A stretch of DNA of 64,000 bases from Kudoa neothunni (Eukaryota; Animalia; Cnidaria): contig OZ199839.1 in the NCBI GenBank assembly GCA_964304625.1, positions 9,252,528-9,316,527 of the forward strand. Direction: 5' to 3'. Below the pieces are notes generated by a model that saw nothing but the letters and a program-made list of their open reading frames with translations, had not been told where the DNA came from and did no database searches. Position 1 is the stretch's first letter, and every line of letters starts with the position of its first letter. Below, piece by piece: positions 2,261 to 46,781 of the stretch. The position numbers and the translations under genes are program-made.

Positions 2261-3608
2261 ATGATTCCTATGTTTCTAGTATTAGTCTCCGTTTTTTTAA
2301 ATTACGCTTTATTGGGTTATTTTATTATTGTTTTTTATAATTCTATATTTTATTAGATATAAGGTTAACAGATTATGAAAGTACTAACTCAGAAACAGCA
2401 GTAGATGGTGTACAACCAACTACAAGATTTAGGATAAATAAAAGCAACGCTGAATGTGAAGAATTTACCTATTTTGGTTATGGATCAAGTTTCAATAATT
2501 TTAAGTCGATAGAAGAATGTAGAAATCACCGTATATTCAAATAAAATAATCATTATCGATTAATAAATTGTAGTGGTTGCATCTCCTTTGGAAATGCTCG
2601 AAGCATGTAAACATCCTTTAGAAAATTATCCTGAATATCTCTGTAATAAAAACTCAGCGACATCTAAAAGATTTTTTAAATATAACCCACAAAATATTGA
2701 CGCTGATAATGGGACCATCACCCCAGAATATTACGAATGTAGAGGATTCTTGTCAAAAGGTTGTGAAGTGTCAAATTACGTGTTTGGAAATAACGCTGAC
2801 TGTACAAACGCTTGCCTAGGTTTTTAGTTATCAAGAATATTTCTTACATTTTTAATAGCAAAAAGAAATGAAATACCTAATGTGTTTGATTGTATGGTTC
2901 CTCATAAATTAACAAATTCGCCGGATGGAGATGAAATGCAGTACGACGTGAGGATAGTTTACAATAGCGCAAAAAATCAATGCCTCTACACAGCTGTAAA
3001 CAGCAATCAAGAGAGAGGGATATTCAAGAAATTTGATGACTGTGTCAAAAAATGTGTAAAAAGTGGGAAACAATTGTCATTATCTAGATCTTTTAAATCA
3101 ACTGTAAATAGAACCAACGGGGAAAAAATGGCCATGCAGTGGAGCTCCATATCAAAGCATATGTGAAGGCCCAGTAGGTCTGAAATACTATTACAACGCA
3201 ACATCTAAGTCGTGTCTTCCTTTTTATTCTACTGAGTGTAACAAACCAGAGGGAGTGAATCAATTTGATACGGTAGAATTATGTGCTGGGAAATGTCAAG
3301 TTAGTATGTATTAAATTCTTGTGAAAAAATATGACCAAATTGAAATAGTTGACCAAAAGTGGAGAAATACTGAGGCATTTTGTCTTCAAAGACCTAGTGC
3401 TGGAAAGGGAAGACTCGATCTTCCAAGGTGGTACTTTGACAGTGAAAGCAGAGATTGCTATTTGTTTGCTTATAAAGGTATTGGTGGGAACAAGAATAGA
3501 TTCACCATGAAAGAACTGTGTTTGGCATCCTGTAGTCAAACACCTCACCAACTAACGCTTTCACCTTCTCCTCTATCAAAGGATTATTACAAATCAAACA
3601 ACGGCTAG
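2261..3608 (+). CDS. secreted multi-Kunitz (BPTI-type) domain protein, 5 domains, 6 exons
   Basis: Exons 2261-2315, 2357-2530, 2574-2819, 2859-3062, 3112-3303, 3349-3608; all introns phase 1, 39-49 nt, GT-AG, frame continuous. Signal peptide MIPMFLVLVSVFLNYALL. Kunitz motifs RWYFDSESRDCYLFAYKGIGGNKNRF, YYYNATSKSCLPFY and CEEFTYFGYGSSFNNFKSIEEC. Confidence 0.88.
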
Positions 3609-15859: not shown

Positions 15860-18800
15860 TTAATGAAAAGATGCCCAACCATAGAACATTTGACTGAGAT
15901 TTTTAGGGTCGGTAGCTTCACCGATCAACTGGTTGACTTGACCGGACACATTAAGTGGGATTTGGAATTTGGATTGGTTACTGAAACCGAGTAATCTTTT
16001 TTCAATTTGATCCAATATCTTTTGAGCATCTTCATTTGGTTCGTAGCTTTTTTTTGATTTTTGGACTGAACGATGAGACTATAATACAAGAGTCACAATT
16101 AATTTATAACGAATGAATTTAAACTAGCAAGAAATTTACTAACAGAAATAGAACGATTGATAATTAAGAAATCAATAGATTGAATCAAAAAAGTAGTACT
16201 CACCTTTGTCCATTCAACGAGAGGATCGTAGAGGAAGGTTTTAAGTACTGTGATTAGTGAATCTTTGTGAGTTCTCATTAAACCTAGCACAATTACACAA
16301 CAGGAACGGAAAGCTCCTTCGAATCCCAACACACCCATAGCATTGAGCATATTATGTGTGAGTCGGAAGGGGACGCGTTCAGGCCAGGCAAAAAGTTCGC
16401 CTTTATTGAACAAACAGTTGAAATCCACATGCATCACGGCACCACTACTCAATTGGAGCAGAATATTTTCGCCATGTCTATCCCCCAATCCGAGCACATA
16501 TCCAACCATGGACATCACCGCGCACGACTTGGCGAAATTTTCTCGAGCCATATACCACAAAGCATGATCTTGATACGTATCGTTGAACCACTCCGATAGA
16601 ACAGGTGGATGGTTTTTAAGAAGGATTCGAGTGAACAGACGCAACAATCGTTCTGGGTCTTTGTTGGTTTCTTCAAACAACTTGCGAATTTCACTCGGTT
16701 TCATGTGTGTTGATTTTTGTTTGTAGATATCACAGATGACAGTTCGTAAACAGCTGGTACCCTCAACCCATTCGATAAGGCCGGATTCATCGTTGAGGGG
16801 TACCACAGCGTACAGTTTTATTTCAAGCCGTCTTCGGTGTGATTCTTCATTTTCCACCAGGAATTTGTTAACTAACGCATTGAATTCCATCAAACGGAAA
16901 TCTCTACGTAGATCGTCTTTAGGTTTGCACATCATAGAATAGACTAATCCGTTGTTGGCGAGAAATGATATTTTCTTAGGACGTTGCAATGACGGAAGTA
17001 CTGCAATTTGTTCTTGTATCGATGCGATAGTGATAAATGAGAAATCATTGCTGTTGGCGCCAATCGAAGGTGAGGATTGTTCGTTGGAAGGTCCAGGTTC
17101 TTCATTGTCTCCAACAACGAATCTAGGTCTACTACTCGAAGATACATTAGACACGGCTAAATTTGACAATATGGGCACAGAAATAGCACTGAAATTCGAA
17201 TGAGAAATCATTTTTTTGAGTTGGGGAAAATCCTTGGCTACAGTTAGTTTAGACTTGTCAGATTTCTTATCACAAATAAGTATCAACTTTTCTGACAAAC
17301 CGATCACATCGGTTATAAATTTGGAGTGTTGAGGATAGGTCTTGACGGTAAGATCGAACACCTCTTTACAACGAGTGGATCTCATTTTGACACTGCTGTT
17401 GGCAACACCGACCAAATACCACACAGTGTGTTGGGGATAGCGAGCTAATAGGAAACTCAACAGATTCAATAACACTTTCCAGACGGTTTTATTTTGATGG
17501 CAAATGCGTGAAATGAGTTGTGACAACGAATGCAGAAAGGTGTGCGAAGGTAGCGACTTATACAAAGAGGTGACTTTGGCGCAAAGTTCGTTAACTTTAG
17601 AGGCAACCTTATATTCTTCAAACATAGTTGAATTATCACCACCACTACTATTGATCAATAACGATGACGAGTCGTTTGACGTATGATGGTCGAAAGAGTT
17701 TCTCTTGCGCTGTCGTTGTTGTCGATTAGAATCAGCAACCATAGTTTCAAAATCAATCCACAAAATAATAAGTCGTGGTAGTGACAAATGCAGAAATTTA
17801 GAGCCATATTTGAGTGAGGTGCCATAATGATTAATAATGCTTACCGCACCGGAAGCAAGATAATTGGCATATTTTTCATCATCCACAGTAGAAGCGATTA
17901 ACTTTTCGTAATAATTTGCTATGGAGAAATACAATTTCTCATAGTGACAATTGAGCTTGATGATGTTGGTGTAGTTTTTGAGAATATCCTGAGGAGTCAA
18001 ATGAGAGGTCTTTTCCGACAGCGAGCACAGCTTGAGTGAAACTTTTGAATGGAGTCGGTTGTTGGGTTGGGGGAAGTGGATGCTACCGGCGTGATTTTTT
18101 AAATAACTCTCCAGCACTGAAACAGCCTCATAGTGGTCACCACAAGCTTCATAATATTTGGTCCGTTCGTACGCTAACTGTAAGGAGTTATCAAAATATT
18201 GAGAATGTTTGAGGTAGGTGTTGCAGGTATCCAGCATTTTAGATTTTCGGGAAATGCGAGCACACTGTAAATAATTTTTGGCGATATCCGCTCGATTGGT
18301 TAGAAACAATCGTTGTAGAGCTAGAATCGGTTCTCTAAATTGGTAAGACTTGTGTGTAATAGCGAGACGTTGATTGAGTAGTTTCATCAGATTTCCAACA
18401 TTATCATTTTGCTCAATATGACAATCCAATTTAGAATTATTTATGCAAGGGTAACTTTCATTGCTACTAGTACTAAGATTGGAGTGAAGAATTTCAGACA
18501 CAGTTAGCACATTAGGCGAATTAATTTTGGAATACGTGTGTTGATGTTGTTTCTGTAGAAACACATGTTCTATATCAAATAGGATATGGAGACGTAGAAA
18601 AATGTTGTAATTCCGGTTAAACCAATCGCCTTCGGTGTTTAACATTTTAAGTTTTTGAGCTTCGACAGCGTAACAACGATCCAAATGATGATAGAAATTA
18701 TCGGCACTATTCTGTTGTAATGATTGTATACAGCTCACAAAGGAAAGATTGTTGGAGGTTGAAAGGAATCGATTTTCATCGGGAATGTCATCATCTTCAA

Positions 18801-21800
18801 AAGTATTGAGTATTTTGTGATATTGGGAGAAAACCGATCGACTATCCTGTACTATACTATCAATACTATCCCATGAAGATAGACGCCAAACCGCGTCTAA
18901 TTTGATATCGAAAAACTCGGTGAAGTAATTAGCAGAGTTGCTGTTACTGTTAGTAACATCAACATTGCCATTTGCGCAATTGTTAACCAACCAGTGTGTA
19001 GGTGTTTGATAGTTGATAACAGTTCTAGGTTGGTAAAGGTTGAGGTAGTTCCTAAGAATGCCACATTCTAAGCTCGCGCCATCTATTTTATCAATGTTAT
19101 CTATATTGTCCACGCTATGTATATCTTTATTATCTATGCTATTTATGCTGTTCATATTAATAGAGTTTGTTCCAGTCCGACTTGGATTATTATAACTGAG
19201 CGCAACCTCTTCACACACGACAGCATCATGAAAGTTATGCTTCAACTCCAATTCGGATATACGGGATAGCACATTGTTGGCGCAGAATTTCAGCGAAGAA
19301 ACGCCACATATGTTATCCACATCACCGAGGCAGGTGTAAATATGATGCAGCAGGTCGGCATGTTGAGTAGTTATTACGATAGCAGAACGATAATCCAACC
19401 GAGTTGCAATCATTGAGCCCAAATCCCGCTCAATGTACCTCAAAGCACGTACATACGACTTACAGCGTATAGACGCTTTGCACAGGTCAATCCATGGAAA
19501 ATGCCCCAAAAACTCCTGTAATCTACTCACTACTAATAATGAGCAATTAGTTGTGGGGTTGGATGTGACACTCGCTTTCTGGAAGTGCCTCAGACGTTCG
19601 TACAGAAAGTCCACACAATCAAACAACACTTGCATACATCCAAACAAAAGGTCTCCCCCATCATTTAAAACTTCTCCTTGACAACCATGATGATGGGATA
19701 GAAATTTTTGTAGTATCGTTTGGAATTCTAACACACATTTTTTGTTATTATCTTCACAAATATTCTCCCCAGCAATTTGTTTCCTTGAGATTGTTTGTTT
19801 GACTTTGTTTGCATCCAAACACAAAACTTCAAAAAGAATATGGGGCAAAAGGGTTCTTGCAATCACATGGTCCTGACTAACAATAGTGATACATGATCTA
19901 AGAATTGCGATTCTTTTGTAGGAGTTATCACTACGTTCATCGAACTGTCCACCAAGCGACGAAGCGTTGCACATAGGAAGTAATGACATCAGATAAGAAG
20001 CCCACAAAGTGATCCACTCATCACAATTGGACACTCTTTCACTACCAACAACCGGAAGTTTCAAATTAGCCACATATTTCAATGTCATTTTGGTACGATA
20101 TCTGGAATACAGATGAGAACGTAAAATTTGCCGAGTGTCTTCATCAAATAGAATCCAACGTTGATATTTTAGTACATTCTTCGAATCTTCACTGCATTCG
20201 TAAAATTTCAACACCTCCTGAATGGCATAAGAGGCACAATCTTGTTGGCGTGAATCCACACAACACACAAACGACTTGCATAACTCTTTCAGCAATTCAA
20301 AGCAGAATGTGAGATCGTCTCCGGCGGGAGAAATTTGATAATCTTTTTTCAACTGAACCATTGAGGTTTGAAGCATCCCCTCCAACAATACTGGATCAAT
20401 GGTTCCCATAGTAGCGAAGAATTTGCAAGATTCCACCCCAATTTTTGATTGTTTATTCTGAGCACATAAAACCACTTTTGCAATAATATCAGCCAATTGT
20501 TGGTTGCCACACCGGTTGGTGAGATTGGCAAGAAAAGTGGAATAATTGCATCGAATGTAGTCGGTGGTATCGAGAAGGGCAATCAATTGCAACTCAAAGT
20601 CATCACTACTCACAGCCATCGATAGTCTGCTCAGTATGTGCTGATAAGCGGTTCTGTTCATATATTCTGTCTTGTCCTGTGAGATTGAGACTAATTGTTT
20701 GTCGATTGACGATGCGTTTGTATTTGTATTTATATTTGGTTGTTGTAGTTGTTTCCAGATGTGAACAATTTGTTCAACTATAACGTTGAATTTGTTAAAT
20801 TTACTGTGCAGATTAGAACTATCTAAAATGCTTGTAGTGGTTGAAAACGACATCGACGAATTATTGGGGATGGCAATCAAAGACAAACAATGTTGAGGAT
20901 CGGTTGCAAATTTATCAAAGACAATCATCTGATACACTTCATACACTAAATCTGGATAGCGACTGTACAACTGTATCAATCCACTGGATATGTGTGGAAG
21001 TACACTCACACACGTATCTACTGACAGGATCTGCACAAATGACTTCCAAAGTTGACATGTGTGCCAACCCAACTGATGAATATGTTTGTATTTCATCGTG
21101 GTGGATTTTACGAGTGCTAGCAACTTGTGCAGCACCTTCTTAATGTGACATTCCCCTAATAACTCCACCAAATAAGCCAAACTCTTGATGGCCAATCTCA
21201 ACTCCATGTAGTTGCCGTGTGAAAGCAGATTGTTGAAAAATGCAATCAACCCATACAAACGCACAGACAAATAGTCTTTTATGGCTGCATTGCTGTTGTC
21301 ATGGCTGGGCTCTACGGAGAGAATAATCGCAATAGCCATCATAACTGTGGTTTGGTCCACACACAGATGCATCACCAAATGAATGATTACATTGTGCATA
21401 TCATGTCTTGCCAACGAATCCAGTTCGTAATTGTTTTTGGTACAACGTTGAATAAATGTGGAACAATGCTCCAATTCTTCGCCATTACAATGCAGAAACA
21501 AATAACTATAGATGTGTTTGGCTGATTTACATAACATCTCATTCATACTACAACTACAGTAGTCTGCAATCACACCCAACAACTGATAAGCCATTTCACT
21601 AGCCATGTGGATCAATAACGATATACTCTCATTGATAAATATCGAATACAACGAATATTTGTTGTACGGGTTGAATAGTCGATCGAGAACATAAATAATT
21701 TTTTTGATGAGTTCACTTTGAGTATTTCCATTATTAATGTTAATGTTAATGTTATTGTCATTATTATTGTTGTTGTTGTTAGCAATCGAAGTAGTAGTGG

Positions 21801-24573
21801 ACGAATGCAACTCATTCGTATCGTAATCAACCACAAATTTGTTCTCAATCACAAATTTCAATACCAACACATTGATTTTCAGACTATTGCCAGTGTATAT
21901 GTCAAAAGTGGTATTGTAGTCGTTGTGGCGACTTTTCGCCAAAGAATTTATTGTATGGGCAATAGAACCTAAACAGGTTTTATCAGGGTGGATAATGGCA
22001 ATTTTCACAAGCCACATCAATATCTGCTCTTCAACTAGCACATAATTGTTCTTTTCATCAGAAGGAAATTCAATTTTTTCATTTTCTAACAACTGTAGTT
22101 CACAATCATCCAATCCAACAATTAACAACTGCAAAAAATGAACACATTCTATCGGATTTGATTTTGGACCAAGTTTTCCATGGCAAATATAATCAATTAA
22201 ACAACTGGCCCTATTGTAGTTGTTACAACGATTGTTGATTGTACATAAGAGCCAGCTAACCACATTACAAATTAAGGATTGTGAGGCGATAGCGTTATTA
22301 TCAAAAGTGGATTCAGCCCAATCGATGCCATTGCTGTTCAAATATTCGAACAATCGATCACTCATTAAACAAATAGAATCGCATTGAAAATGAGCACTCA
22401 AAAGTGTCATGCATGATAAATATAATAACTGGAAAGACAATAAATTTCCTTCTTCAATAAGTTGACGGTTTGTAGTCAGTGTGTTGTGAATGTAATCGAT
22501 TATGCTTGCAAACGATTGAAAAATTGGATCAGAATTTTCGATCCTATGCACACAACAGCAACCAACAGGAACATCACACAGTGTTGAAGTGTTAACTCGA
22601 TCTATTGATTCGTAGAATGATTGTGGAGTTATTATAGGATTGACATTGGTCGAACATTGAGCATAGAAACAAATAATGTCTTTATACACTTGGAAAAAAT
22701 GTAGAAATTCAAGTTGTGGTAGATTAAGGATCTTTGATGTAATATTTTTGGTGATAAATTCAGTGGTAATTATTTCTGAGTGTTGAATGGCGACAATCGC
22801 AACCAACTTGAACACCAATAAAACGCTAGTATTAGCCATAGTTGATTTTTTCGAAAATAAACAGTCAAATAAAATCCTCAGGATTTCATCCAAAACATTT
22901 AACTCCAGTGAATGCCCTAAAAATAGGACATTCCTCACAGTGCAATTGATAATATAGGGTGAATCAAATTTGGTAATGTATCGAAGCAAATTTGTTATCA
23001 TCGAAGAATATGAGGAGTGATTCGCTTGAGCTAAAACTCTGTTAAGTATAACCACATTCAGCCAACAAACTATAAGCATTTGCTGACGAAGTGAAAGGGA
23101 TTTTTCCTCACTGGTACACTGGATTATAAGATATTCAGACAGTTTAGTGATGTATCTTGAAAGGGTTGAATTGTTGGTGTTATTTATTGATGTATCAAGA
23201 GAATTCTTATTGCAATGGAGACAGTACTTTGCAACCATCAATAGATCGGTAACATCCAAATCGTCGACGGTTGAAGATTGTTGGTTGTTCTGAACAGTTT
23301 GCGAGTCGACCGAAAAATCAATATTCATCATTATTTCGATCGATGCTGAGGCTGATAATAAAAAAGTGTAATTGCAATCTTTTATTGTATCCAACTTAAC
23401 ACCATACGCCTTGATTATCGAATCGGATATGTTCAAATAGGCGCCAATAAGACGATCTAATTTCTTCGTATTAAAGGTGTTGTTTTCGGTGACGATAGCG
23501 AAAAAATTGAATATTTTATCTATCAAAAAAACCAAATTATCCAGTGAAGAGTTGATTGAAGATTTATGATTGTTATGAATCGATAAAGCGAAACATAATC
23601 CATCAATGACACATTCCACAAAACCACACACCTCTTCAAATGTATTCTCACAACACACCAACCTAGATTCATCATCAATAAGACGATAAACTAATGTCTC
23701 CGCAAAACCCTCACTAAGCTTCAGAGCAAGCTCAACAAAATGAATGGAAGTTTCGGAGTAATGGTGGAGGTGGAAAGAAACAAATTTCAAGATCTCGAAC
23801 TTAGTGCAATATGTTCCCGAACAAAAACACATATACAACATATTGGTAAAGTGCTTAAAGTTGTCGTTCGATACAAAAAAATCCACATACAATTGCTCCA
23901 CTTCGAAAGCAATCACCAACTGCACAACAATCATTTCCATTAGAGCTAATTGATCGTGAACACACTCCACAAATATTTCGTTTGGCATCTCAATAATATT
24001 TTGGTCGTCGTTTGATGCAACGGTTGCAGGAGTAATAATCAAACTGTAACAACTCTTCATTTTCAAGTCACCCACATTTTCACAAAATTGAATAATGCAT
24101 TTTTTATCGTTGATCGTACACGCCAAATCCACTAATATAGAAAACAACAGTAGCACCCATTTCTGTAAAATGCTAAAATGATGCTTTCGAAATTCCAAGA
24201 AATATTTCTTCAAAATACGATAAATCGACGGAATGAAATCATCATTTTTGGTTGGATGAAGCGGAAAATATTTTCTAATTTCCAAAAATTCTCGTAGAAA
24301 CCATAATATTGCAAGATTATTGATATTATCTTCTGAGTTTAGTGCCGACTGCTCCGAACCTGACTGAACCGTGCGAACATTCTTAAATATCAACTCTGGA
24401 AATGATTCAACGCAATGGTCGAAAAATTGTAGAATTGCCGCGTGTTGATTTTGATTGGTTTCCAATTGGTTATTGTATTCTTCATTTTGAAGCGTGTGTT
24501 CTTGTTGAATAAATTGCACCCATTTTTTGACAGCCTCGATGATATTTTGGAGCGAGACTTCAGCCTGCGACAT
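15860..24573 (-). CDS. ATR: serine/threonine kinase ATR (PIKK family), 2 exons, ~2862 aa
   Basis: Exon 1 24573-16204, intron 16203-16079 (GTGAGT...TATAG, 125 nt), exon 2 16078-15860. Kinase motifs SLQRPKKI, CKPKDDLRRD, GLGDRHGENIL, HVDFNCLF, PERVPFRLT; ATR-typical QDCASYAIQEVLK and LSLPRLIILWIDF; the spliced last exon supplies FATC (PLNVSGQVNQLIGEATDPKNLSQMFYGWASFH). Confidence 0.96.
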
Positions 24574-26394
24574 CTTCACGCCTGCGCATAACCTTCAAGC
24601 GGGGTTATAAATATTCTTTTTTTATTCATTAATTTATTAAGTATTTAATTAATTGATTCCTTAATAGTATAAAACTTTAAAATAAATTTTAATCAAAATA
24701 ACTCATTTTGTGCACGTGTGTTGATCATTTTATCAATTTTTTTATTCACATTCTGAAAGTATTATTACCAACAGTAACATTGATATTGTATTGCATTCAT
24801 GTTATAAAGATTCAAGCTAGAGTAACAGTTGTAATTGTGTTACAATAGTACAGTAAAAATTACAGCCGACGATGGTTATTGCGTATTTATCGTGTCATTA
24901 TTATATTAGAAATTTGCTGTTGGCATTGTAGATGATATTCAGGTGTCACTAGTTTTGACACTATTTAATTATTTCTCAATAATAAGATATGGTTGGCGGG
25001 TTAGCAATAGTTAAATACGACAGATTCTACAAAATATTATGTGGGTATACAGCTAGTGAGACACGGTCACAACTCGTCCAACTCTAATAAGTGTACACAC
25101 AAATCTACTATAAAGCTGTTTCATGGTATTGTTCTTGTTACATTTCCCCTTAAGCTTGTGATTACTGTATATTTTAGAATAATATTCACCGTTTTAATGA
25201 AAGAAGAAAAAACCCACCAGAATGTTATATCATTATAAAAACGGGGAAAGGAAAGATTAATTATTAACAATCGCCTTTTGGGAAATGTTTATTGGCAAAT
25301 AAATTTTAATTCTATCAGAAAATACTGCACATCTTTACTCCCTCTAGCTCTGATTAATGCTTCTCCGGAAATAGAATTTTCTCTTCAGGAATTATCGAAA
25401 ACATCAGAAGAAATAGAATGTTGTGTTTTTCATGAGATAATCTTGTTCTAATGAGGAAATTTTTCAACACATCGACCAAATGATGTCATAAATCTGAAGT
25501 TTCTGATTTAACTATAAATTAACGTAATATTTATACATATAATTAAATATTAGTTCCATTTTTACAAAAAAATCTTATTTGTCCGATTTGGGTTGGCAGC
25601 GCTTTTTCCTCAATCAATAATTTCGAAAAGTAAGCTATAATAAAAATATATTGCTTTTTCGGGAAATTATATTTTATCTTATTTTGAGGTAGAAGAAATC
25701 TTAAATGTTTAAGAAAACAATAAAATGTTGTAAACTATCTATAGTTAAGATGTAATGAGCATAATAATCAAGTGTTCCCTAGGATGACCTTTAGACATAG
25801 GCATGAATGGATTAAATTATTTTTATCAACGAAACGCATTTAATTCCAATAAATACCATTTTAAAAAGAAAATATTAAATTTATACCATAAGACTATGGT
25901 AAATATTATTTTAAATATTATCTGGAATTGATATCTAAAATATATAAATAAAAATTATAATAATTTTAAATCAATGTTATTTTTCTGGAAAACTGGCATT
26001 TTTACTATATTTGAGCTTACGTGTGTGTATCTTTAGGATTAAAATTAACGTGTCAAGTGCCTCTACGTAAAGTTAACGTTACTCTCTTAATACTCGAATA
26101 TTTTTTTAAAGTCCGACGAAAAAATATTAAATAAAAATAGTTGGTTATAACGATGTAAAAAGTTAAAATGCTCAAAAAATTCTAATAATCATTTTCATCA
26201 AATTACAGAAAAAATAGAAGTTAAGATAAAATTCTATTCGGATGTATCATTGCCATTTAAAAATTTGACGCTGTCTTTATAATTCATTAATAGTATATTT
26301 AGTAGCTTATTTGTAAACAATGGCTTGATATAACCAATAAGCTAAAATCGATTAATGTTTGGTGTTAATTTCTTATTTTCTTGATTATTCCATA

Positions 26395-26400
<6 letters not shown>

Positions 26401-26438
<38 letters not shown>
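26401..26438. repeat. (TA)n microsatellite
   Basis: About 19 uninterrupted TA units. Confidence 0.95.
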
Positions 26439-26441
<3 letters not shown>

Positions 26442-27019
26442 CTGAAGCTTTTAAAATGAGGTATAACAGATTGAGTTCTAATATATTTTTTTCTATGATT
26501 ACATATATATAATTTAAAATAATGGTAATAATGATTATTAGAGGGTAAGCTTCGATTATCTTTCCATAAGATTTTTAAATAAAAAAAATCATATATATAT
26601 ATATATATGAATACATTTTACATTATATAAATTTATATTTTAACATAATTCTTTCGTGAAATATTTTATTATGCATAATAATAAATTATTGTATTTAATA
26701 TCGCCTTATTTTATATTTTTGAATGGATATTCATTCGTTAAAATAAACTATAATTGTTTTTAATTTGTTTTTAAATAGATAAAAATTACTAAAACTTTTA
26801 AAATTATTTTGAAGAAAATATTCACAATAGAGCTACACGGAGGTACAATTTTCTCGCTTGTTCATTTAATATTTAAATGAATTTTAGACACCAAATATTT
26901 ATTTGTACTCTTCAATCGACACAAAATTAACGCAATCTAATCAAGGACCAAAGAAAAGTATTAAATGAGGTAAATGTATGATGTGAATAGAAGAATTAAA
27001 TTAACGGGTTTGGGGGTAT

Positions 27020-28107
27020 TTAAAATCTCCCCGGAAGCTTTGGAAGAACAAAACCTCTTCTACAAAATAAAATTAATTTTTGAAGTTTTCATAAAACAAT
27101 TACATCATTGGAACCGAAGCCATCTGAGTCATACCAGCGAAACCTTTTCCATTGCGGAAAACGCGTGCGAAGCCTCTCTCTCCCCAACCAATACCCCAAC
27201 TATTTTTTAGGACCCAATGAAATCCCCCTTTATCTTCATATCCAACACAAAGTAGAAATTGGATTAAATTGGAGGCGTCTGAATTGAGATCACGGTCGTA
27301 ATAAATACCGCTTTTATAGAATCGGAAAGAATTTTGAGATGCATTAATGGAAACCGAAACGGGGCCCAGACCAAAAACTGTAGATTCAAGCGCTAAATCC
27401 GTAGGAACTAAACTGTAATACTCTTCAAATAATTGAACCACTTGATAAGGATTGTACTGTGATATTCCTTTCTAAAAATAAATGTTAAAAATCATCTGGA
27501 TCACATTACCACGCCCTTGTATGGATAGTATTGTTCGTACATGATACCATTCACCTTTACATATTCAAACACATTCTCGGGGTTAACATCGAATATTTTA
27601 TAAATATCAGTATAATTATCGATAACTTGCTGTTCGCTGAATGCCACAGCGAAATAATGCCTAAGAGCGAATGCAGATTCGATTGCACCAACTGCGCTAA
27701 ACACCCACGAATTCGAGCGCAATCCTTGATCCTTTACCTTACATACTACTCCACGTTCTCTCCAATCGAACGATGACGGAATAGAATGTGGAGGGTAGAG
27801 AGCATTTATGGGGCGTGCTCTAGAACTATATTCTTCAGATGCGACACTTAAAATAGCTTTATACTCTTCATCACTCTATAGCATATCTTAAAAAGCTTGC
27901 GAGAGTTAATTGAGTTATTACCAGATGAGAAAAATGGTTGTGGCCGCAACTGTGCATAGAATCTTTTCTCGCATTGAAACTGGTGATAAATTCGTGGTTT
28001 TGGATAAAATTGTGAAATCTTACCTTTTCTTCCGAACGATAAAATTTCAACTTATGTGCAAGTTTATATTCTGGCCATATTCTGTGGCATATATCGGTAG
28101 ATGACAT
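27020..28107 (-). CDS. cathepsin-L-like (papain C1A) homologue A, catalytic Cys->Ser and His->Gln, 4 exons
   Basis: Exons 28107-27922, 27875-27510, 27471-27104, 27059-27020. I29 prodomain ERFNIN (EEKVRFHNFIQNHEFITSFN), PSSFDWRE, KDQGLRSNSWVFS, FSEQQVID, GPVSVSINAS, LIQFLLCVGY, WVLKNSWGIGWGERGF. Confidence 0.9.
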
Positions 28108-31100
28108 TTTGATCTTTATTAAACCGCCTCAATTTTCCTTTTAATATTATTAACAAGATTATTCATCATTATATATCTAGTATATGTACGACTACTATCA
28201 AATGGCTATGCCAGGGGTGATTTTTTCTGATCATATGTTAAAATAACAACGTTGCTACAGATAATATAAATAATACATCTCTATGTATTATCGGCGTATT
28301 ATGTACAACGATTAGTTAGTGATACTCCCCGCGTAAATGTTTATCTAAATTTAGAATGCTATCAGCTCGTAACCTAAACAGTAAATTGTTAATCTAATTA
28401 TAAGTCGACATATCCAATAATCACAAACGACGTAAACCAATTGTACGTTATCTTTTTTTTATCAATAATTTTTTTAGATATATAATTCATTTAAATTTTG
28501 TTATTATAATTTTTAATTAAAGAAGAGCTAATAACATTCCAATAATTTAAGCAACACGGAGAACATTCAGACGATTATTGATTATTGTCTCAAATAGTTT
28601 ATACTCATCCGCCCAAAATTAAACTCTACACTAAATAATATAATATCGTTTTACGTTTTTAACTTTATTTATTAATTTTTATAATTCTTTAGAGTAAATT
28701 TTTTTTATAATTTCGACTATCAAATAGAGATACAATAAATTATGTTTAAATGCCACTCCAGGTTTATTTTGGTGTGTATACTTGACTTTGTTTTTTATAA
28801 ATTTTAATAATTATTTATTGTTTTCTTTTAAATTATAAAATAGTAAAAAATACCAATTTTAACGGGATTTTTTAGTAATATTGCCTATTATTCGTGTCAA
28901 TTAAATTTACAGATTGCATAATCCACAACCAAATTAGGTCAGATAAAAACCAGCTAGCATTCAATTTTTTATCCTGTTATGTCAAAAAAACTATCTTTTG
29001 TATGACTGTAATTTTGAAAATTATTTGTGGTTTATCTTAATAAATGCCTCGGTTATATCATAATAATATTTTCTGCGAAAATTAAGCTTTTGTCGTGTGG
29101 CCGGCGCCCACCCATGTAAGGCTTCGGAGCTGTTGAAATGAGTTATAATAACTGTTTATTAATATTTAATCTGCATAATTAATGTAAAAAGGTTTCTTTA
29201 TTGAACAAATAAGGCAAATATACGGTTTTGGTAATTCCTTGAATTGGTATTTTAATTGCTGTGGGTTAGACAACTCAGACTTTACGCACTCCTAATGTTT
29301 TTAACATTGATTAATCATTTCATAATACACATAAATTAATATTCTCTTTTGACATAATATACCGAGGAGTAATTTAAACTGAAAAATTCGATATTCTATT
29401 ATTAACTTTACAACTACTCATCCGAAAATGTTTCCACATAAGAAATAAAGCTTAATAACATTTTTAAATTGAGTTAGCTATATCTTTTCGCCCGTAATGC
29501 ACAAAATGATTTATAAATTATATATGGGGACGATTCCGCGGAAATAACACAATATAAATGTGTCGAAATTGATACCAATAAAGATGAGAGGGGCGGAGTA
29601 ACTTACAATCTCCTTAAGACAAAGAGAGATAAAAAATAATTTATTATAGTCTTTATTATGTCGTTTATTATTAGTTTGTGAATATTCAACATTGTAAATG
29701 TCAAATAAGGATATGTAAAAGAAAAGTTGTGGACTTCTCCAATGAATGAAACTAAATCTATTAAAGATTTGGGATTCCATGATCATATTGAAAATGATGA
29801 AGGAAAAATTAAAAAATTCAAACTTTTTTATAACAAATATAGACGGAAACTCCGTATATCCATATCCAACAGCTAAAGTTTATGGTATAGCTCCGAATAA
29901 CGAAAACCTTGATATTTCAAATAAGCTTCAAAACATAATATGTGAAAGAATGCGAAATAATCGCAAGCGAAAGAATATTATAACAATATCATTTTTTGCT
30001 TTCTAAGATAATTTGAAAACTAAAAGAAACTAAAAATTGTGACTCTCAACATATTATACTGTTAATAATAGTAGATTTCGGATTATCACAACCGAGAGAA
30101 ATTTGATACATCTCATTGCTTATAAATTATAACACATTCACAGCAGTCCTAAAATGGTCCTTTCAGCTGTATAACATCTCAGGGATCGTTTTTAATCAAA
30201 TATATGTTTTTGTTTACATATTGTCGGACAAAATTACAAAAAAGCTATAAAAAAGTACTCGAAATTCTTCAATAAATGGCAAAATGAAACTTCCCAAAAA
30301 TAAAATGCTAAAATTTGAAACGACCACTTACAATTCATTTAAAAACCCATCATAAATTTCGACTCATTTTTGCTAATGTCACCTTGAACAAAACGTGTAC
30401 AGAAAAATTTAGAAGCCAGGGTTATCCAAAGATTAGGATCGTAATTTTAATTTCAGGGACTGTCAAATTAATTACGTCTTTAGCATGTGTCCGTAAGAAT
30501 CGCGTAAAGAAGGAATTTGAAAAACTGAAAACAAGATCCAAAATTTTGATGATAAAAACAATTTCAATCCATTTATGGATTAATTAAAAAAGAATTTTAT
30601 CATGAACTCTAAATAATCACTAAAATCATTAGATGCTTTTGTCAGACTGATTTAAACGTCCATTTCTGTCGGGACATTCAGCAGGCACTTTTATTCCTGT
30701 TTTGAATAATCTCAACCTGGAATATTTATATTTGTTCAAAAATTATTTTACGTGAAATAATTGTGGAACAAGACGTATCTTTCAAATTTTTTAACCAAAC
30801 TTTTGAGGTACACAGAAACATTCATAGGAAAATACAAAAAACTGAAAACAATATTCCAAAATTAGGATAAAATACAAAAAATAAATTTCCTCGATAAAAG
30901 TACTTTATTAGCATAATTCATCAGATGAATATTCAAATAATTCGACTATATTTAACTCTTAGGTGTATAATTCATATGATTAATTGGATTACAAATAAGC
31001 AAGTGAACTTCACCATAACAAACCATTAAAATTCTCTTAAATAAGATTAAATATTATTTTATTTTTAAACCGCGTAGCCACATCAGGCCAACGACTTTCG

Positions 31101-31870
31101 AACTAACTATATACTTTGATAAAAATCATCAATTACGATATACCGAAGCACGCCTCATCGAAACATTGCTGTATGAGACATAAAAAATTTTCAATTTTCC
31201 TTGATTTCGGATTTTAAAATAGCACAAGAAATAATTTCTTAGTGAATGTAGATTCAAACTTAATCGGTCACAAATTTCACTTTTGGGAACAATCCCATTC
31301 AACTCCAAATTTTATATTACGATTGACAAACTTTTATTCTCTATCAACAAACAAATCGTAAACAGCCATAAAGATAGTTGTTTTCTTTTATAATAAAGTT
31401 TTTATTGAATATATTTTAATCTACTATAAAAAGACATTTATAATGCTTGCAGAGATGAAACAAGTGAATTAGAAATCAATCGCAATATTGAATTACCCAT
31501 AAGACACGATAATTAGTTTTATTATTAAGAACTTTTTATAGTACTAATTCGTTTGTTTAAATAATATTAACTATTATAATAAAATGTCTAGATATCGCAA
31601 TAATAATAAAATATGATTATTTTGGAATACAAGTTTCACACACATAAGCCATATTTAAAACTTAGATTAAAATGTAAAACTTTAAATAACAGGCTTTATA
31701 GCTATTTTAAAAGTAAATTTATTGCATGCCAGTAAACATAAAATATGGGATTTCGTTTCGCGAAAATTCACCAGAAAATATACAACTATTCGATATAATA
31801 ATCCTCAAACTAAAACAAAGGAACAAGCGAATAAAGACAAACGACACAGTGAGAAATTATCAGTTTCAAG

Positions 31871-32999
31871 TTATTGTGGTATAGCCTTCCTTCTGAGTGT
31901 TGGAATTGAGAATCCTTTCCTAAAGAGCGAGAGTGGTAAAATGGCCCAAGTAACAAGAAATACACTATGGGGACCGATGCAAGATGAGTGATACCGGCGA
32001 ATCCGCGGCCATTCCTCTGAAGGCGCATATAACCTCTCTCTCCCCATTCAACTCCCCAACTGTTCTTCAGAAGCCAGAACATGTTTTCAGTGCCATATTC
32101 GAATCCAATACAAAGCATTGCATGGTCTATACTTTCTGGTACCGAAGCAATGTGATCATCGAAATAGACGCCACGTTTGTAAAATCGGAAACTATTGCTG
32201 GAAGCGTTGATAGCCACGGACACCGGTCCGAGAGTGAAAATTGCGCATTCTAGGGCAGATTCTGAATTTTTCAAACTGTAATGATCTTGTATGTAGACCA
32301 CACTGTAAGGATCGTACCTCTTTGTTCCTTGCTATTAAAACAGAAAAAACCAGATTCATTACAACCTGTGCGTAAGCTCCGAATTACGTACATTTCCCTC
32401 GTAAGGATAGTGTTTTTCGTACATGATACCTTTCATTTTGACGTACTCGAATACGTTTTCAGTGAGACCACCATAACGTCCATAGGTGGCATCACAACAA
32501 TCTATGATTTGTTGTTCACTGAAAGAAACCAAACAACCATGAGCTTGAGCGAATGCTGCTTCGATGGCAGCTACTGCACTGAATGCCCAGGATGTGCCAA
32601 ACAAGCCTTGGTTTTTCACCCTACCTACCACATCATAATCTCTCCAGTCGAACGCCGAAGGGACACACTCGATATGAGTGTCATTTTCTCGCATGAAAGC
32701 ACGTCGTTCAGTGGGAGCACAACATTTGATCGTTAGCAGAGCTTTGTATTCCTCATCGCTCTAAAACAAAATTGTGCAAAGTTGGGCTGATAATTGTGAT
32801 TTCTGCTGCATACTAAATGTGAGAATTGATTGTGGCCACAACAATGGGTGACGTGTCTCCGATGGTTATAACTGGAGATAAAAGCGTGGCTTCTATGGAA
32901 ATTATTGAAACGACGATTGTCTTGGTCACTGTTGTACACCAGCTTATGTCTCGTCTTGTACTCAGGCCAAATTCTTCTGCATACATCCTCGATCGACAT
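31871..32999 (-). CDS. cathepsin-L-like (papain C1A) homologue B, Ser-His-Asn triad, 4 exons
   Basis: Exons 32999-32814, 32760-32392, 32331-31964, 31919-31871, with the same intron positions as paralogue A. PSAFDWRD, KNQGLFGTSWAFS, FSEQQIIDCC, IDHAMLCIG, WLLKNSWGVEWGERGY. Confidence 0.9.
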
Positions 33000-33912
33000 T
33001 TTTATCCGTGATCATGTCCGCCGACAATCATTTTTAATAATATTAACTAGATTACAGGCAATTAACGTGAATTCCGTTATCGTGGAAATAGATAAGAATA
33101 TAGGTTTGACATAATAATTTAAACTGTCAATAAATAAGTGGCACTCTACCAAGGTATGCAGTTAGGTTTCTTTGAGGCCGCTCAACAAAATTGCGAAATA
33201 TGTTGCTGGTAACGACTTCCATATCCCAACAAATCGTTATCTAAATCTTTTGTGTTACCAGTACGTGACATAAAACGTTCTATTAAAAATGAATAAATTT
33301 TAAAACATTATTTAGAATAGAATAATTCTTTGATTTTTCACATACAAATTCAAATATTTCTTCAATAGATCTCAAAACACGATCAAATTAGCTACTTTCT
33401 GTTTAGTTTAGGTAGATAGTTTAAAATGTATGTGGTATTTAAATCCACATAATTGTTTAGCTTTACGATAGCTTGAAATTGAATTTTGTTTTGAGGCTAC
33501 ATGAAAGGCACTAACGTAAAACTGAATACACATGCACGTAACCCTACATTCTTAAGGGGAACTCGCTTAGTCACCTATGGCATATTAAAAAATAGCGTTA
33601 TAAATCTTCGTGTAGCTCCACATAGGAAAGTGCATTTAAAATATACAGTTCACCAATATAAGTAATAACCTTCAAAATATTGCCGATATATGCTCGGTAT
33701 CAGTCAATCCTACATATGTTACGAATTTCTAAAGATTGCATAGAATATAGTTTGCTAAATATATAGAATCGGTATCCCCTTCCACACAAATTCTATTATA
33801 TTTGCTGGAGATTGGTGGTTTATTAATGAGTTTGATAATTTAATTGGAAGGAACACTTGTTTTCTTTCAGTTAATAGTAAATTTATCATTATATTTTATC
33901 AAATCCGAACGA

Positions 33913-35791
33913 ATGAAAAGGCACGTTAAAAATAAATTTTCAGGTTCATCTTCCGAGTATTTCACTCGACCCACTGCCAAAAATAGTAGCTACTCAAACC
34001 TTGTTATGAGCATGACTAGTTCTGGGGGAGTGCGCTCTTCAAAAGTGGTTGCAAAAAAATTATGGGATTCAGCTACAACAAATCGAGCCGTATTTGCCAA
34101 TAGAACGACATCTACATTTTGCAATAGCCCCAAATCTTTGATAACCGACGGTGCCGCTCTATTGATGGAGGAGGCTTGTAGAAATAATGATGAGTTTTCA
34201 TTTCCTTTTTTCAATATTACCAACACCGACACTGTCACTGTCACCGATGATAAAAACAATAACTCCAGTCGACTATCATCAAAGAATGATCATTGCCATA
34301 TAAAAAAACGTCTTTTTGGTATTGTTAATGATGGAACTGCTAGCAACACTACTAAAGTTAATACTGCCATCTGTGCTGATCTTTTTACTAATGAATTCGA
34401 ACACCCTAAACAATTCGTTGAATGCAATGTCAACGTATGCCAACTTACATTATCTGATAAACAAAATTTTCCATCCGATCTAACTGGATCAGTGTCATGG
34501 GAAGAATCGTCGAATATGAACACAATAATGAATGCACCTTTTGAGCAAAACGAAAATTTAGCTTCAGAAGAATCGTCTCCATTTGTTCCAACCAAACAAT
34601 CGCATGAAGAAAAATTGTTTTCTAATGGCACGTTAACACCTAAAACTCGAGTGGTTAAAAGAGGACGTGCTTTAACTGATTTTTCTGAAAATAATTCACC
34701 ACTGTCAATATTGACAGAAGGCACCAAAAAGGTATCTTTAAGTTAAGATGCTTTTGATTTATATTCATTGATGTGTCGTAGTTGAAAATAAGTGATCGTA
34801 TATACAGTAGTGTGTGTTGTGGAGTTGGGATATCGTTTAATTGCGAAACGCAACCAAAAAAAGCGTCCTCATTCGCAGATAATCAATTGTTACCCCTTCC
34901 AATAAATGAGGAAAAGTTTGAGTCGATCGATACTATCAAGAAATCTATCGAAAAGTAAAATCCAAATTTGCTTGAAATTGTTCCTCAGTTAACACTCTCT
35001 AGAATAGCACATACTTCAAACGAACCAACGAATCCAAATACTGATTCAAATAAACGTCTAATTGGCGATTATAGTAGATATAGCGTGTTTCCAACAGCCC
35101 TAGGAGATCATAATGACCTATTAACAATAACTTCATCTACACTTGCCAATCTCATTCAATCCCATTACGATCCAAAGTCAGACACCATTTACAATGACGA
35201 TTACAATATTATTTTGATTGATTGTCGTTATCCATATGAATATCAGGCTGGGCACATCAGAGGTTCCATCAATCTGTACAAGATGGACGATATTCTTGGA
35301 CAGTTTATTGAAAAAGCCAAGTCAAAATTGTTTGATAACAAAGGAAAACTTCCAATCCTTATTTTTCACTGCGAATTTTCCTCTAGAAGAGGCCCAAAAC
35401 TGTAACTGTGTGCCTATCAAGCTTCCTACTGATTTCAATTAATCTTTAGAGCTAGGTCTCTGCGTAATTTTGATAGAAATGTTCACAAGGAATGCTATCC
35501 CAAACTATTCTATCCTGAAATTTATATTCTAAAGGGAGGTTACGCCAACTTTTATAGGGATTCTTCTGTATTTAAAACAATTATTTGAATTTAAATTAAA
35601 ATCTTATTTAGAATTTGTGTATACCTCAAGATTACGTCCCCATGGTTGATAAAAGATACACAGAACAATTGGAGTTTCATCGGAAAGAAAGCAAGTCTTC
35701 ACTAGGTTACACTAACGTCAAAACGACCGCAAGAACTAAAACTGAAGGAAATTCTGGACGTTTCCCAACCTTCAGGCGACGAATTACTTAA
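33913..35791 (+). CDS. CDC25: M-phase inducer phosphatase Cdc25, 5 exons
   Basis: Exons 33913-34731, 34782-34954, 35003-35401, 35450-35567, 35612-35791. Motifs IDCRYPYEYQAGHIRGSINL, active site IFHCEFSSRRGP (CX5R), YPKLFYPEIYILKGGY, CIPQDYVPM; Ser/Thr-Pro-rich N-terminal regulatory region. Confidence 0.95.
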
Positions 35792-37413
35792 TATATCTTT
35801 CAATGTCCTCTTGGAAGTGTTTTTGTCTCCTGCGATTCAAATAATACTAGATAAAAGTTTTACATCGTATGTCGTTGTTGGTTTTATTTGGTCACGTTGA
35901 GTATAATTTTTTCTTCGAGAATCTTTTTTATATGAATACGAGAGAATATTCTGAATACATCTAAATAGATCAACCCCACAAAAATGATGTAGAATAGTAA
36001 GTAGAAGTCGAGTCCATTAGGACTTTAGTGTCTAATTTATTTTTTTATTTTTTCAACAATAATTCCTCTTTAATTTAAATAATTTTCTATGCATTCGTAT
36101 ATGCACAAAATTCCCATTTAATGATTAATTCGCTTGCTTTATCATTATGAGAATTATTTTAATTATCTATGAAAATATCATAAAAAATCAATTTATTTTT
36201 AGAAAAATATTTAAATTAGTTAGTTAATGAGTATAAATTTATTCAAACGTCAAAAAAATGATTCAAACTATCCTATCAAATATCAAATATTCGTCGCTTT
36301 ATTATCGAAAAAAACCAAATATAACAGAGAAATGTTTTTTAAACTCTGAATATTTAGTGGTTGTTATTAGGGATATTTTATATAGTTTTGTGAAATTTGG
36401 CAAATATAATATAATTTAATATATAAATCCTAAAAATAATCCAACAGAATATACAATAATAACAATTTTTTATTATAAATTACTCGCACTGCATAAACAC
36501 TCATGTCCTCCAGAAAATTCGTCTTTTTTCTGGTATCTCGGATTTTTTTGGTTTTGCTGTACAAAATTAATTAGTTTTTTATTTTTTCGATGAATTAATC
36601 ATCAGAATCAATCATTATTGTGTTATTCTTATAAAAAAGACTTTTATATTCCTTCATCTATATTTGACTTAATAGTTCTTTGTCAGTGATGTTATCGCTG
36701 CCTTCATTTTCCCATAAAAATTCTTACATACCGCATAGAATGAGATCTCTATTGATGTGTACGCGCTAAATTTAACTCTATTCCTATCGAATTATATTCA
36801 AATTAAAAAAAACAAGATATTAAACTATTTTGAAATATTAGAAAACTGCTTTCCGAAATGTTCCCAATTTATTGTTTTATTATTTTATTAATTTTTTCAA
36901 ATACTATTTAATTATTTTATAACCTATATTATTCTTTCTATTTTTATTATTCGATTATTAATTACTTTAATATGGCATCATTTTTCTACCAAATTATTTA
37001 ATTAATTAACTAGTTTATTATTTTACTATATTTTATTATATCTTATTATTTTACCTAGATGACCCAAATATAATATTTACGCTCGTCGCTAATAAATACC
37101 TCAACACAAGTTCTAAGTAAATTAATGTACAGATTCGGAATAACAAAAGTGTGAATCTTGTTGACTGACGAATTTTCGAGAAACACTCGTCAAAATCACG
37201 TTTGAGATTCAAGTGAACTCTGTTTCAATCTATTTTATAAAAAGACCTAATGTGTTTATCTCATTTATTTTCTATTAGCTCGAGAATCCTACATCTGTTT
37301 ATATTGCGTGATAGGCGAATTGAAATTTTTGCTCAAAAACCATTTTTAATAGAATTATTCTGTAGTATAAAACTCACAATGGAAAAAAAGATAAAGCGAG
37401 TATCTACAAATAT

Positions 37414-44830: not shown

Positions 44831-46781
44831 ATGAGGAGATCGAAGGAGGATGAGGCGTTGGAAAGTTTGGTGGGTGCGTCATTTCTAAAACATTCTCTCA
44901 ATGCAGAAAGTCAGCGAGAAAAATTAATCTCACATACAATAACTCAAGTTTGCAGACTGTGAACATTCCTATAAATGGCGTGGCTATTTAGGGCAAGATG
45001 CCAGAGAAGGGATGGGATGAAGCAACACTTTCATATTTCATCCATAAAATAGCATGCTTAGATACCAACAATTTCGTAGGTGATTTTCATCACTACATTG
45101 TTACTTTAAAGCTGAATCCTGCCAAACGTAGATAATGTAGGGGTAGGAGAACGAGAAGGTCGCGTATTCTCTAAAATGATTTCCAATAGGCATTATCGGT
45201 TAGTACATTAGTCGCTGTGATTTACAACACTCATCAAATTCACGTAGAATGTCTCATGGCATTGGGCGTTCGGGGGAACCTCTACGAATTACAACCCAAA
45301 GCAATGGGTTCGTCTGTTCTTTACAAACTTTGCAATAGATTGGTTTGTCATGCTATCAATCTTTGCGGTTATTAAACTATTTTCGATAAAATTTAAAATT
45401 AAAGTATGGTTTTCCGTTGTGGGATTGTAGGAGTGACGTCAATCAAGAGGTGTCTGGTAGTTCCAGTTGCCACAGGAATGGCTATGACCTTGTGTTTATT
45501 GACCCTGAGAAGATTGAAACCTCAAGCAAAATTTGTGCTTTGGAGTCGAATCGATCAAAAGTCTTGTTTCAAGTGTATTTTAACAGCAGGTACAATTCAA
45601 AGAGTTCGCTTCTTATTCGCATCCATTTGTCAATAAATTGTGCATAGGCTGCACCCCTGTAATTATCGAAAATCTTATTGATGAAGATCATCTTCGAACC
45701 AACACCGACCAATTAGTAGACAAGATTGAAAAGCTCGGTCCGCAGAATATTCTCTGTGTCATATCAACGACTAGTTGCTTCGCTCCTAGAACACCAGACA
45801 AGTATGAAGTGGATTTGGTGTTATGGATTTTTTATTGTAAATTAACGGTGAAGTGCGGAAGTGATTGCCGAGCTGTGTTACAAATATGGTCTTTATCATT
45901 TGTTGAATAACGCGTATGGTCTACAGCACAGTGGAATTGTGCATCAAATCAACAAAGTATCCTCGACCAATCACAGTTGATCTGTAATAATAATGATTAT
46001 TGTGGAGGCTATTCTTAGTAAAAATTCTGAAATAACGTACGTGGTTCAAAGTACGGATAAGAACTTTTTGGTGCCAGTTGGCGGGAGCGTAATATACTCA
46101 AAAAACAACACCAACAACGGAACTTCTTTTTTGGAGCTTCTAGCAGAAAATTATCCAGGTATATTATTTTTTTGACGAAAATTCATTTTTTTACTGATAA
46201 TAGGAAGGGCTTCTGCTTCGCCTATATTAGATCTTTGTATTACTCTGCTGGAATTGGGACAAAAAACTTGGATAAAATTGCTAAGTGATCGAAAGGTTAG
46301 TTGTTTTATATAAGGATTCATTTTCCTACAATATGTGATAGGAATGTTATGAGTATATGCTTGAAAAATTGAATATTATTGCAGGAAACCATGGCGATAT
46401 TATTAAAGTTTTATCAGTTCCTAAAAATGGCATTTCTATAGCTGTTACAACTACCGAACATGAAAATAAAGAAAATAACTCGTTTCTATGGAAAGTTGCA
46501 GAAAGACTCTATTATAAACATATTTCTGGAGCAAGGTTTAAAATATTAAAATACCTTCATATTAGCAGTAATTCTAACTATGTTGTTTATTTAGGTATGT
46601 GAAAAAAGGGAAACAATTCAATATCGATACTTATAGTTTTAAAAATTGGGGCCAACATAGCGACAACTATCCACATTCAGAATACATCACATTGGCGGTG
46701 TCTATTGGAATGAATAAAAAAAATGTTGATGAATTCTGTCAAAAATTTGACGCAGTTTTGAAAACTATTATTAAAAATTGA
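44831..46781 (+). CDS. SEPSECS: O-phosphoseryl-tRNA(Sec) selenium transferase, 11 exons, one apparent +1 frameshift
   Basis: Motifs [89 protein letters not shown] (PLP lysine), YPGRASASP. Ten short GT-AG introns; the G5 run at 45272-45276 has one G too many for the frame. Confidence 0.95.

Follow-up and report, generated by a model that had tools for sequence, protein, structure and literature searches.

Two neighbouring genes on the minus strand of a 64,000-nucleotide stretch of the Kudoa neothunni genome (GenBank assembly GCA_964304625.1, contig OZ199839.1, positions 9,252,528 to 9,316,527 of the forward strand; hereafter the window) have the domain organization of cathepsin L and a serine at the position of its catalytic cysteine. 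What could their products, here called A and B, do in this parasite, and in which compartment? We propose, with a probability of about 0.55, that A and B are paralogues of cathepsin-L type, intact and under selection, which act as non-cutting binding proteins in the cytosol and retain their prodomain. As cysteine proteases they are very probably dead. The proposal is drawn from the nucleotide sequence and from comparison with homologues, and its main supports are the replaced nucleophile, the near-total loss of the disulfide cysteines, a start directly at the prodomain and the pattern of codon substitutions between the two genes.

Gene models, active site and disulfide cysteines

The two genes were delimited by six-frame translation and coordinate checks, their splicing being deduced from the DNA sequence. 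Their parts, in window coordinates, are the following:

32999-32814, 32760-32392 and 32331-31810, minus strand: gene B, three exons, 358 amino acids.
32814..32999, minus strand: B exon 1, ATG and I29 prodomain, 62 amino acids, without leader (PF08246, E 1.3e-07).
32392..32760, minus strand: B exon 2, end of the prodomain and L-domain, with Gln113, Ser119 (nucleophile) and Cys150 (PF00112, E 1.6e-25).
31963..32331, minus strand: B exon 3 core, R-domain, with His255 (32124-32122) and Asn275 (PF00112, E 2.1e-26).
31810..31962, minus strand: C-terminal tail of B, 50 amino acids and the stop codon, without Pfam match.
28107-27922, 27875-27510 and 27471-27100, minus strand: gene A, three exons, 307 amino acids.
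27922..28107, minus strand: A exon 1, ATG and I29 prodomain with the full ERFNIN pattern (PF08246, E 5.4e-06).
27510..27875, minus strand: A exon 2, with Gln112 and Ser118 (nucleophile), cleft glycines (papain 23, 65, 66) substituted (PF00112, E 6.4e-15).
27100..27471, minus strand: A exon 3, Gln255 at the catalytic His position, Asn274 retained (PF00112, E 2e-20).

These models bear out the description of an earlier note on this DNA, which had called both paralogues intact and cleanly spliced with the same intron positions: all four introns are GT-AG, in phase 0 and at matching positions (53 and 60 nt in B, 46 and 38 nt in A). Pfam places I29 (PF08246) in exon 1 and Peptidase_C1 (PF00112) in exons 2 and 3 of both genes, the order found in cathepsin-L-like members of family C1A, and the two proteins are identical at 159 of 305 aligned residues (52%). 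The stop codon of A lies at 27102-27100, rather than at 27020. A tblastn search of the window for further cathepsin-L copies returned A and B alone.

The nucleophile is Ser in both proteins, within QGLRSNSWVFS in A (codon TCG, 27710-27708) and QGLFGTSWAFS in B (codon TCC, 32592-32590). B keeps His255 and Asn275, and A has Gln255 and Asn274; the Cys-His-Asn triad of an active cathepsin L is thus present in neither. The residues lining the cleft are largely kept in B (Gln113, Gly117, Trp120, Gly159-160, His255, Asn275, Trp277), which could still bind a ligand, whereas A is without the glycines and the His. Sequencing error as the source of the Ser codons was considered and rejected, as DNA contigs assembled from four runs of a single sample, which may be the one behind the window and would then be no independent check, match it across A and B: one contig covers the whole stretch (X1), a second all of A (X2) and a third the B nucleophile (X3), with 0 differing letters.

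The three conserved disulfides of an active cathepsin L are lost as well, since A retains none of the six cysteines and B one, Cys150, the equivalent of papain 56. For comparison, we used 97 homologue domains, namely those of 153 fetched proteins that cover the mature domain, 90 of which have all seven conserved Cys columns filled. Among these 90 rows, the 79 of Cys type have six disulfide cysteines in 68 cases, five in 9 and four in 2; both Gly-type rows have six; and the 9 Ser-type rows have six in 6 cases, four in 1 and two in 2. The minimum is therefore two, against 0 in A and 1 in B. Within this set Ser-type C1A proteins are not rare, and near-total disulfide loss is. What the earlier note had read from the letters, namely Cys-to-Ser at the nucleophile of both genes (with no TGY seen in the contigs), His and Asn kept in B with the His lost in A, and broken canonical disulfides with C56 alone left in B, is confirmed by the codons and by this census.

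N-terminus, upstream element and the tail of B

Each ATG has an in-frame stop before it, at 24 nt in A and 15 nt in B, and in both proteins position 11 is occupied by the first aromatic residue of the I29 helix. The best 9-residue hydropathy within the N-terminal 40 residues is -0.22 in A and -0.12 in B, compared with at least 2.0 in 31 of 41 full-length single-domain matches, a rule for leaders that misses the other 10 of these 41 control proteins and to that extent weakens the leaderless call. A scan for a leader exon of B (ATG start, hydrophobic, GT donor) gave 0 candidates within the 900 nt upstream, up to the divergent Cdc25-like gene; under relaxed settings 85 combinations appeared, the best of which requires a GC donor and the loss of the first helix. 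By these genomic and hydropathy tests the signal peptide of an active cathepsin L is not evident, in agreement with the claim that both genes start directly at the I29 prodomain behind in-frame stops. The neighbour at which the scan ended is a rhodanese-domain gene (PF00581, window 33844-35900, plus strand), head to head with gene B at about 900 nt, which presumably carries a Cdc25-like active-site motif.

Upstream of their starts, the two genes share a short element:

33032..33054, minus strand: 23-nt AT-rich element, B copy, 33-55 nt upstream of the B ATG, candidate core promoter.
28139..28161, minus strand: 23-nt element, A copy, 32-54 nt upstream of the A ATG, candidate core promoter.

The copies are identical at 21 of 23 positions, a score reached in 0 of 500 shuffles, and the introns and 3' flanks of A and B are without similarity (scores reached in 291, 364 and 378 of 500 shuffles). 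With fewer than 4 mismatches allowed, the window contains no further copy. Given that the element has no shared terminal AG, a core promoter is its likeliest reading; this would make exon 1 the first exon and argues against a hidden signal exon.

At its other end, B extends 50 residues past the end of A, with TAT where A has TAA. The last 19 residues are hydrophobic (Kyte-Doolittle hydropathy, KD, 1.94) and an AATAAA lies at 31723, 87 nt past the stop. Of 11,150 intergenic 150-mers, 274 (2.5%) have an open frame of 50 codons, and by codon score the tail ranks within the top 3% of intergenic stretches, but codon use scores higher still in a shifted frame of the tail, and the evidence for a function is weak. 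The tail could be a tail anchor, which fits a cytosolic protein, a glycosylphosphatidylinositol (GPI) signal, which contradicts it, or harmless read-through.

Around the two genes, (AT)n microsatellites lie downstream of gene A (window 26401-26438 and 26593-26609), and in the stretch between A and B low-depth contig joints and opposite-strand joints (29725-30500, 31092-31245) hint at small repeats or inverted elements.

Prodomain, selection and relatives

The ERFNIN pattern is complete in A and present at 4 of 6 positions in B, and the GNFD motif has His instead of Asp in both. Exon 1 of B is predicted to fold as a two-helix I29 domain (predicted local distance difference test, pLDDT, 93.7); the model resembles papain-family propeptides with template modelling (TM) scores of 0.8-0.87 and no E under 0.001, and crammer (2l95, TM 0.63) is among its weak structural matches. 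A sequence search of the PDB with exon 1 of A gave 0 matches, and the fold of B exon 3 predicted from a two-row alignment is of low confidence (pLDDT 35.6).

The prodomain appears to have been rebuilt. A and B share Cys7, His38, His52, Cys54, His56 and His61 in exon 1, and the last five are among 15 residues common to both yet nearly absent in homologues, a filter that rare residues pass more readily. In the homologues the same residue occurs at position 38 in 0 of 65, at 52 in 2 of 70, at 54 in 0 of 70, at 56 in 0 of 73 and at 61 in 0 of 75, and the five stand in place of Leu, Tyr, Leu, Val and a conserved Asp, respectively. Over B26-62, His and Cys together number 7 in A and 9 in B, compared with 0-5 (median 1) in the 64 of 97 homologue rows that cover the stretch. 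The simplest reading of the cluster is a putative metal site, which we put forward tentatively, at somewhat less than even odds. The 20-residue segment best conserved between A and B is B221-240 (16 of 20), which we take to correspond to the prosegment-binding loop region.

Substitutions between A and B indicate purifying selection and not decay. Over 305 codon pairs the proportion of nonsynonymous differences (pN) is 0.31 and that of synonymous differences (pS) 0.73, pN/pS being 0.35-0.49 in 1000 bootstraps; 39 of 57 four-fold sites differ, for a saturation expectation of 0.75, and the corrected dS of 2.9, itself unreliable, is far above the dN of 0.39. Selection is read from the gap between a pN of 0.31 and synonymous sites that are almost saturated. 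In neutral simulations at d = 0.3, 0 of 2000 remained stop-free. The earlier note had named a ratio near 1 as an outcome that would speak against its proposal; the ratio is well under 1.

A FastTree analysis of A, B and the 97 homologue domains joins A and B in one clade (support 100) on a stem of 0.99, with end branches of 0.79 for A and 0.39 for B. The single clade on a long stem suggests that the change to Ser, the loss of the cysteines and the start without leader are older than the duplication. It also supports the view that A has diverged further than B, as do the conserved columns lost, 18 of 54 in A and 12 of 54 in B.

Orthologues were sought in several ways. A search with exon 2 of B gave 5 matches among 156 candidates and no orthologue; an exon-profile search gave none among proteins of 588-2000 amino acids, a range outside the relevant lengths; and a protein homologue search gave 13,338 matches, among the best 150 of which, as listed, the highest identity is 53% and no orthologue occurs. 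Thirty of these 150 were checked by name, and none is named as myxozoan, several being nameless. A metagenome scan yielded 472 pattern matches, 0 of them confirmed, and the Atlas gave generic Peptidase_C1 and I29 clusters only. The Logan proteins P0250 and P0276, about 40% identical to B, are of Ser type, have lost 4 of 6 disulfide cysteines and show no evident hydrophobic leader; no other homologue row comes as close to A and B in disulfide loss. They differ from A and B in having an extra N-terminal domain and no His/Cys prodomain cluster and are not sister to them in the tree; judged by their sequences, they are an independent arrival at the same syndrome.

The lineage of the window was assessed on its ATR kinase gene (16099-24594, minus strand), almost the whole of which is a single open frame of 8.5 kb, with insertions rich in Asn. 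Among the 120 matches listed for its kinase region, the highest identity is to Thelohanellus kitauei (58%). In a quick tree (29 rows) as in a careful one (17 rows) the kinase is sister to Thelohanellus plus Henneguya (Shimodaira-Hasegawa-like approximate likelihood ratio test, SH-aLRT, 100; and 100/100) on a long branch. This is one gene, long-branch attraction is possible, and orthonectids, dicyemids and further myxozoan lineages lie outside the set; with these bounds, the source is likely a myxozoan outside the Thelohanellus-Henneguya group. The near-single open frame of ATR contrasts with other genes of this genome, which have many introns of 38-60 nt. Other features seen in the window are:

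141-788, minus strand: PiggyBac-like transposase fragments (PF13843), stop-interrupted.
2828-3608, plus strand: Kunitz-domain protein, with PF00014 in 3315-3605 and a Cys-poor Kunitz-like stretch without Pfam match at 2828-3166.
45584-45910, plus strand: SepSecS exon (PF05889).
49318-52002, plus strand: HSP70-12-like gene, labelled by eye, the tested pieces without Pfam match.

Possible function, rival explanations and known systems

If A and B are binding proteins of the cytosol, their history could be as follows. Transcription would very probably start just behind the shared upstream element, so that translation begins at the prodomain and the endoplasmic reticulum (ER) is missed. In the reducing cytosol the disulfide cysteines would no longer be useful, and this is probably why they were lost. 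Without a thiol nucleophile there would be no proteolysis and no self-activation, and I29 would stay on; that cysteine-protease activity is absent we hold with high confidence. Less securely, the five prodomain His and Cys replacing hydrophobic core positions and the conserved Asp would form a stabilising metal site. The task would be binding within a protease/inhibitor network, where the nearly intact cleft of B may trap cytosolic stefins or substrates, or I29 may damp papain-family enzymes, any particular partner being doubtful. A would have remodelled its cleft for a different partner, and the tail may tether B to a membrane from the cytosolic side.

The literature, cited here by accession, lends this outline some footing. 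Papain, cathepsin L and cathepsin S lose their activity on Cys-to-Ser replacement, and SERA5 has an essential role that is not enzymatic (PMC4671257). Myxozoans possess stefins without signal peptide (PMC7913475), and stefins would be the most obvious candidate partners. The active-site census and purifying selection also support the earlier note in its proposal of a pseudoprotease. A more elaborate version, in which a lysosomal cathepsin L moved to the cytosol, became a permanent pro-form pseudoenzyme with a His/Cys metal site in I29 (a zinc clamp, or a metal or pH switch replacing the Arg-Asp bridge) and was duplicated into a membrane-tethered, cleft-keeping B and a soluble, cleft-remodelled A with one shared promoter, seems rather unlikely; no described counterpart of such a metal-regulated intracellular pseudoprotease pair was found in the searched literature.

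Several observations weigh against the cytosolic reading or its metal site, in addition to the control proteins missed by the hydropathy rule. A 3.6-kb leader scan for A returned 15 distant donor/acceptor combinations above threshold, the best candidate being 30116-30060, across a 1946-nt intron; the in-frame AG contexts of all 15 are T-poor, at 0.24-0.35 versus 0.47-0.71 at the four real acceptors. An N-A-S sequon at 227 is common to A and B. We take the tail of B to resemble a GPI signal as much as a tail anchor, and a GPI signal would require entry into the ER. The organism is generally rich in His and Cys (3.5% each in ATR), and of the 10-11 His/Cys in exon 1 the two proteins share 7, roughly the exon-wide identity of 53%, so that the case for a metal site lies in the positions replaced, not in excess conservation. 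Finally, disulfide loss alone does not establish a cytosolic location, because the cathepsin L of Kudoa thyrsites, thought to digest host muscle, is reported to be without disulfide bridges too (PMC7296530). We regard the cytosol as a reasonable inference for A and B.

The same observations feed a rival in which A and B are exported decoys, delivered to the surface or the host through an unseen signal exon or leaderless secretion, with B held by GPI, and binding host cystatins or other defence proteins. The distant candidate leader exons of A would serve such a route, and the tail of B, with its uncommonly long open frame, high codon score, hydrophobic end and nearby poly(A) signal, would be its anchor; many parasite excreted products are without signal peptide (PMC7913475), and the SMIPP-Cs of Sarcoptes scabiei, in which Ser is combined with Gln or Leu at the His position, are believed to work outside the cells of the mite (PMC5956821). 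We nonetheless consider export unlikely, as no leader exon was found for B, the conserved element is fixed just upstream of both ATGs, the SMIPP-Cs, unlike A and B, retain four predicted disulfides and in most cases a signal sequence, and the higher codon score of the shifted frame means that the tail may be functionless read-through. Secretory origin also bears on a structural role, in which the dead papain fold would self-assemble as a scaffold, say during the making of spores or polar capsules, in the manner of a silicatein filament without silica: nematocyst and spore-wall proteins are secretory-pathway products, which counts against it. Silicatein-alpha does sit in the spicule filament as an ordered lattice in inactive mode (PMC7733841), the shared promoter-like element suggests co-expression, and A retains its fold residues without a cleft; but silicatein works in a lysosome-derived vesicle (PMC12978542) and no repeat or assembly motif was seen in A or B, and we think this role improbable.

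Similarly improbable is the idea that B is a Ser-His-Asn hydrolase, an esterase or an enzyme of silicatein-like silicon-oxygen chemistry, with a dead A as the partner that regulates it. B does keep Gln113, Ser119, His255, Asn275, Trp277 and the cleft glycines, Ser is present in both copies, and the S26A and H165A mutants of silicatein fail with tetraethyl orthosilicate (TEOS) (PMC6233156). However, A holds the Ser without the His, so that retention of Ser does not require catalysis, and the authors of the SERA5 study knew no case of peptidase activity surviving Cys-to-Ser (PMC4671257). Nor is the silicatein-like, silica-condensing system suggested in the earlier note supported. The Ser-His-Asn triad of silicateins is present in B and absent in A, the nucleophile context is Thr-Ser-Trp (B) or Asn-Ser-Trp (A) instead of the defining Ala-Ser-Tyr (PMC6233156), and the Ser run before the catalytic His is absent in the alignment with cathsilicatein 2vhs. 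Ser makes up 7.9-8.9% of the mature part of A and B, compared with a homologue median of 7.4%, and exon 3 of B matches cathepsin L (E 1.7e-26) better than silicatein alpha (E 8.3e-23). Silicateins are reported from Heteroscleromorpha sponges alone, where they occur in the silica deposition vesicle (PMC12978542), whereas the window's ATR groups with myxozoans and A and B show no leader for secretory entry. A silica assay would not discriminate, as ordinary cathepsin L condenses silica in vitro too (PMC6233156), and no paper linking myxozoa, silicon and spore valves was found in the searched literature. Least probable of all is that A and B are decaying duplicates, recently deprived of function or not expressed: the conserved columns lost and the possible loss of a stop codon in B would fit, and the pairwise ratio averages over the entire time since duplication, but the open frames, the intact splice sites, the upstream element conserved despite near-saturated synonymous sites and the 15 derived residues common to A and B argue otherwise.

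We return to non-cutting binding proteins of the cytosol, and to how these would compare with known systems. With a papain fold under selection and the nucleophile replaced, A and B would belong with the C1A non-peptidase homologues, such as SERA5, SMIPP-C and testin. The C1B bleomycin hydrolases, cytosolic members of the papain clan, have a Peptidase_C1_2 domain and no I29 propeptide; A and B match PF00112 and PF08246 only. The stand-alone I29 inhibitors crammer and CTLA-2 share the I29 fold, unlike A and B with no catalytic-domain partner in their chain. Testin is a mammalian, secreted protein with the Cys-to-Ser change. Filed as MEROPS C01.972, it is like A and B a cathepsin-L-like non-peptidase homologue (PMC5753285), a likeness at the level of description. 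Silicateins resemble B only, by Ser-His-Asn on a cathepsin-L scaffold (PMC6233156, PMC7733841, PMC12978542). The SMIPP-Cs are parasite C1A paralogues with Cys-to-Ser and His-to-Gln/Leu, as in A; described as without propeptide, with four predicted disulfides and mostly with a signal sequence, they are the opposite of A and B on all three counts (PMC5956821). Plasmodium falciparum SERA5 likewise has a Ser-type papain-like domain, essential yet non-enzymatic, duplicated from Cys-type genes, but it is large, vacuolar, disulfide-rich, proteolytically processed and not an I29 cathepsin L (PMC4671257).

Among myxozoans, the cathepsin Ls described have signal peptides or a predicted extracellular location (PMC8777295, PMC10454682), and Ser-His-Asn cathepsin-L-like transcripts were mentioned in one sentence for Sphaerospora molnari and left out of that study's analysis (PMC7296530); they share lineage, scaffold and triad with B, by description only. 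For these set-aside transcripts A and B now give a sequence signature. The searched literature, which leaves out most subscription papers, showed no Ser-type cathepsin L described as lacking both leader and disulfides and as having a His/Cys prodomain. The counts of myxozoan 'cathepsin L' behind the nomination of drug and vaccine targets would include dead, non-secreted members, and the keeping of two such genes in very reduced parasite genomes implies a real job. If the proposal is true, a papain fold without catalysis can be put to new use in the cytosol. The single features of A and B each have a precedent, the combination and the rebuilt prodomain being what is new: the described C1A pseudoproteases, SERA5, SMIPP-C, testin and silicatein, remain disulfide-bearing proteins of the secretory pathway, and A and B would differ from them on both points.

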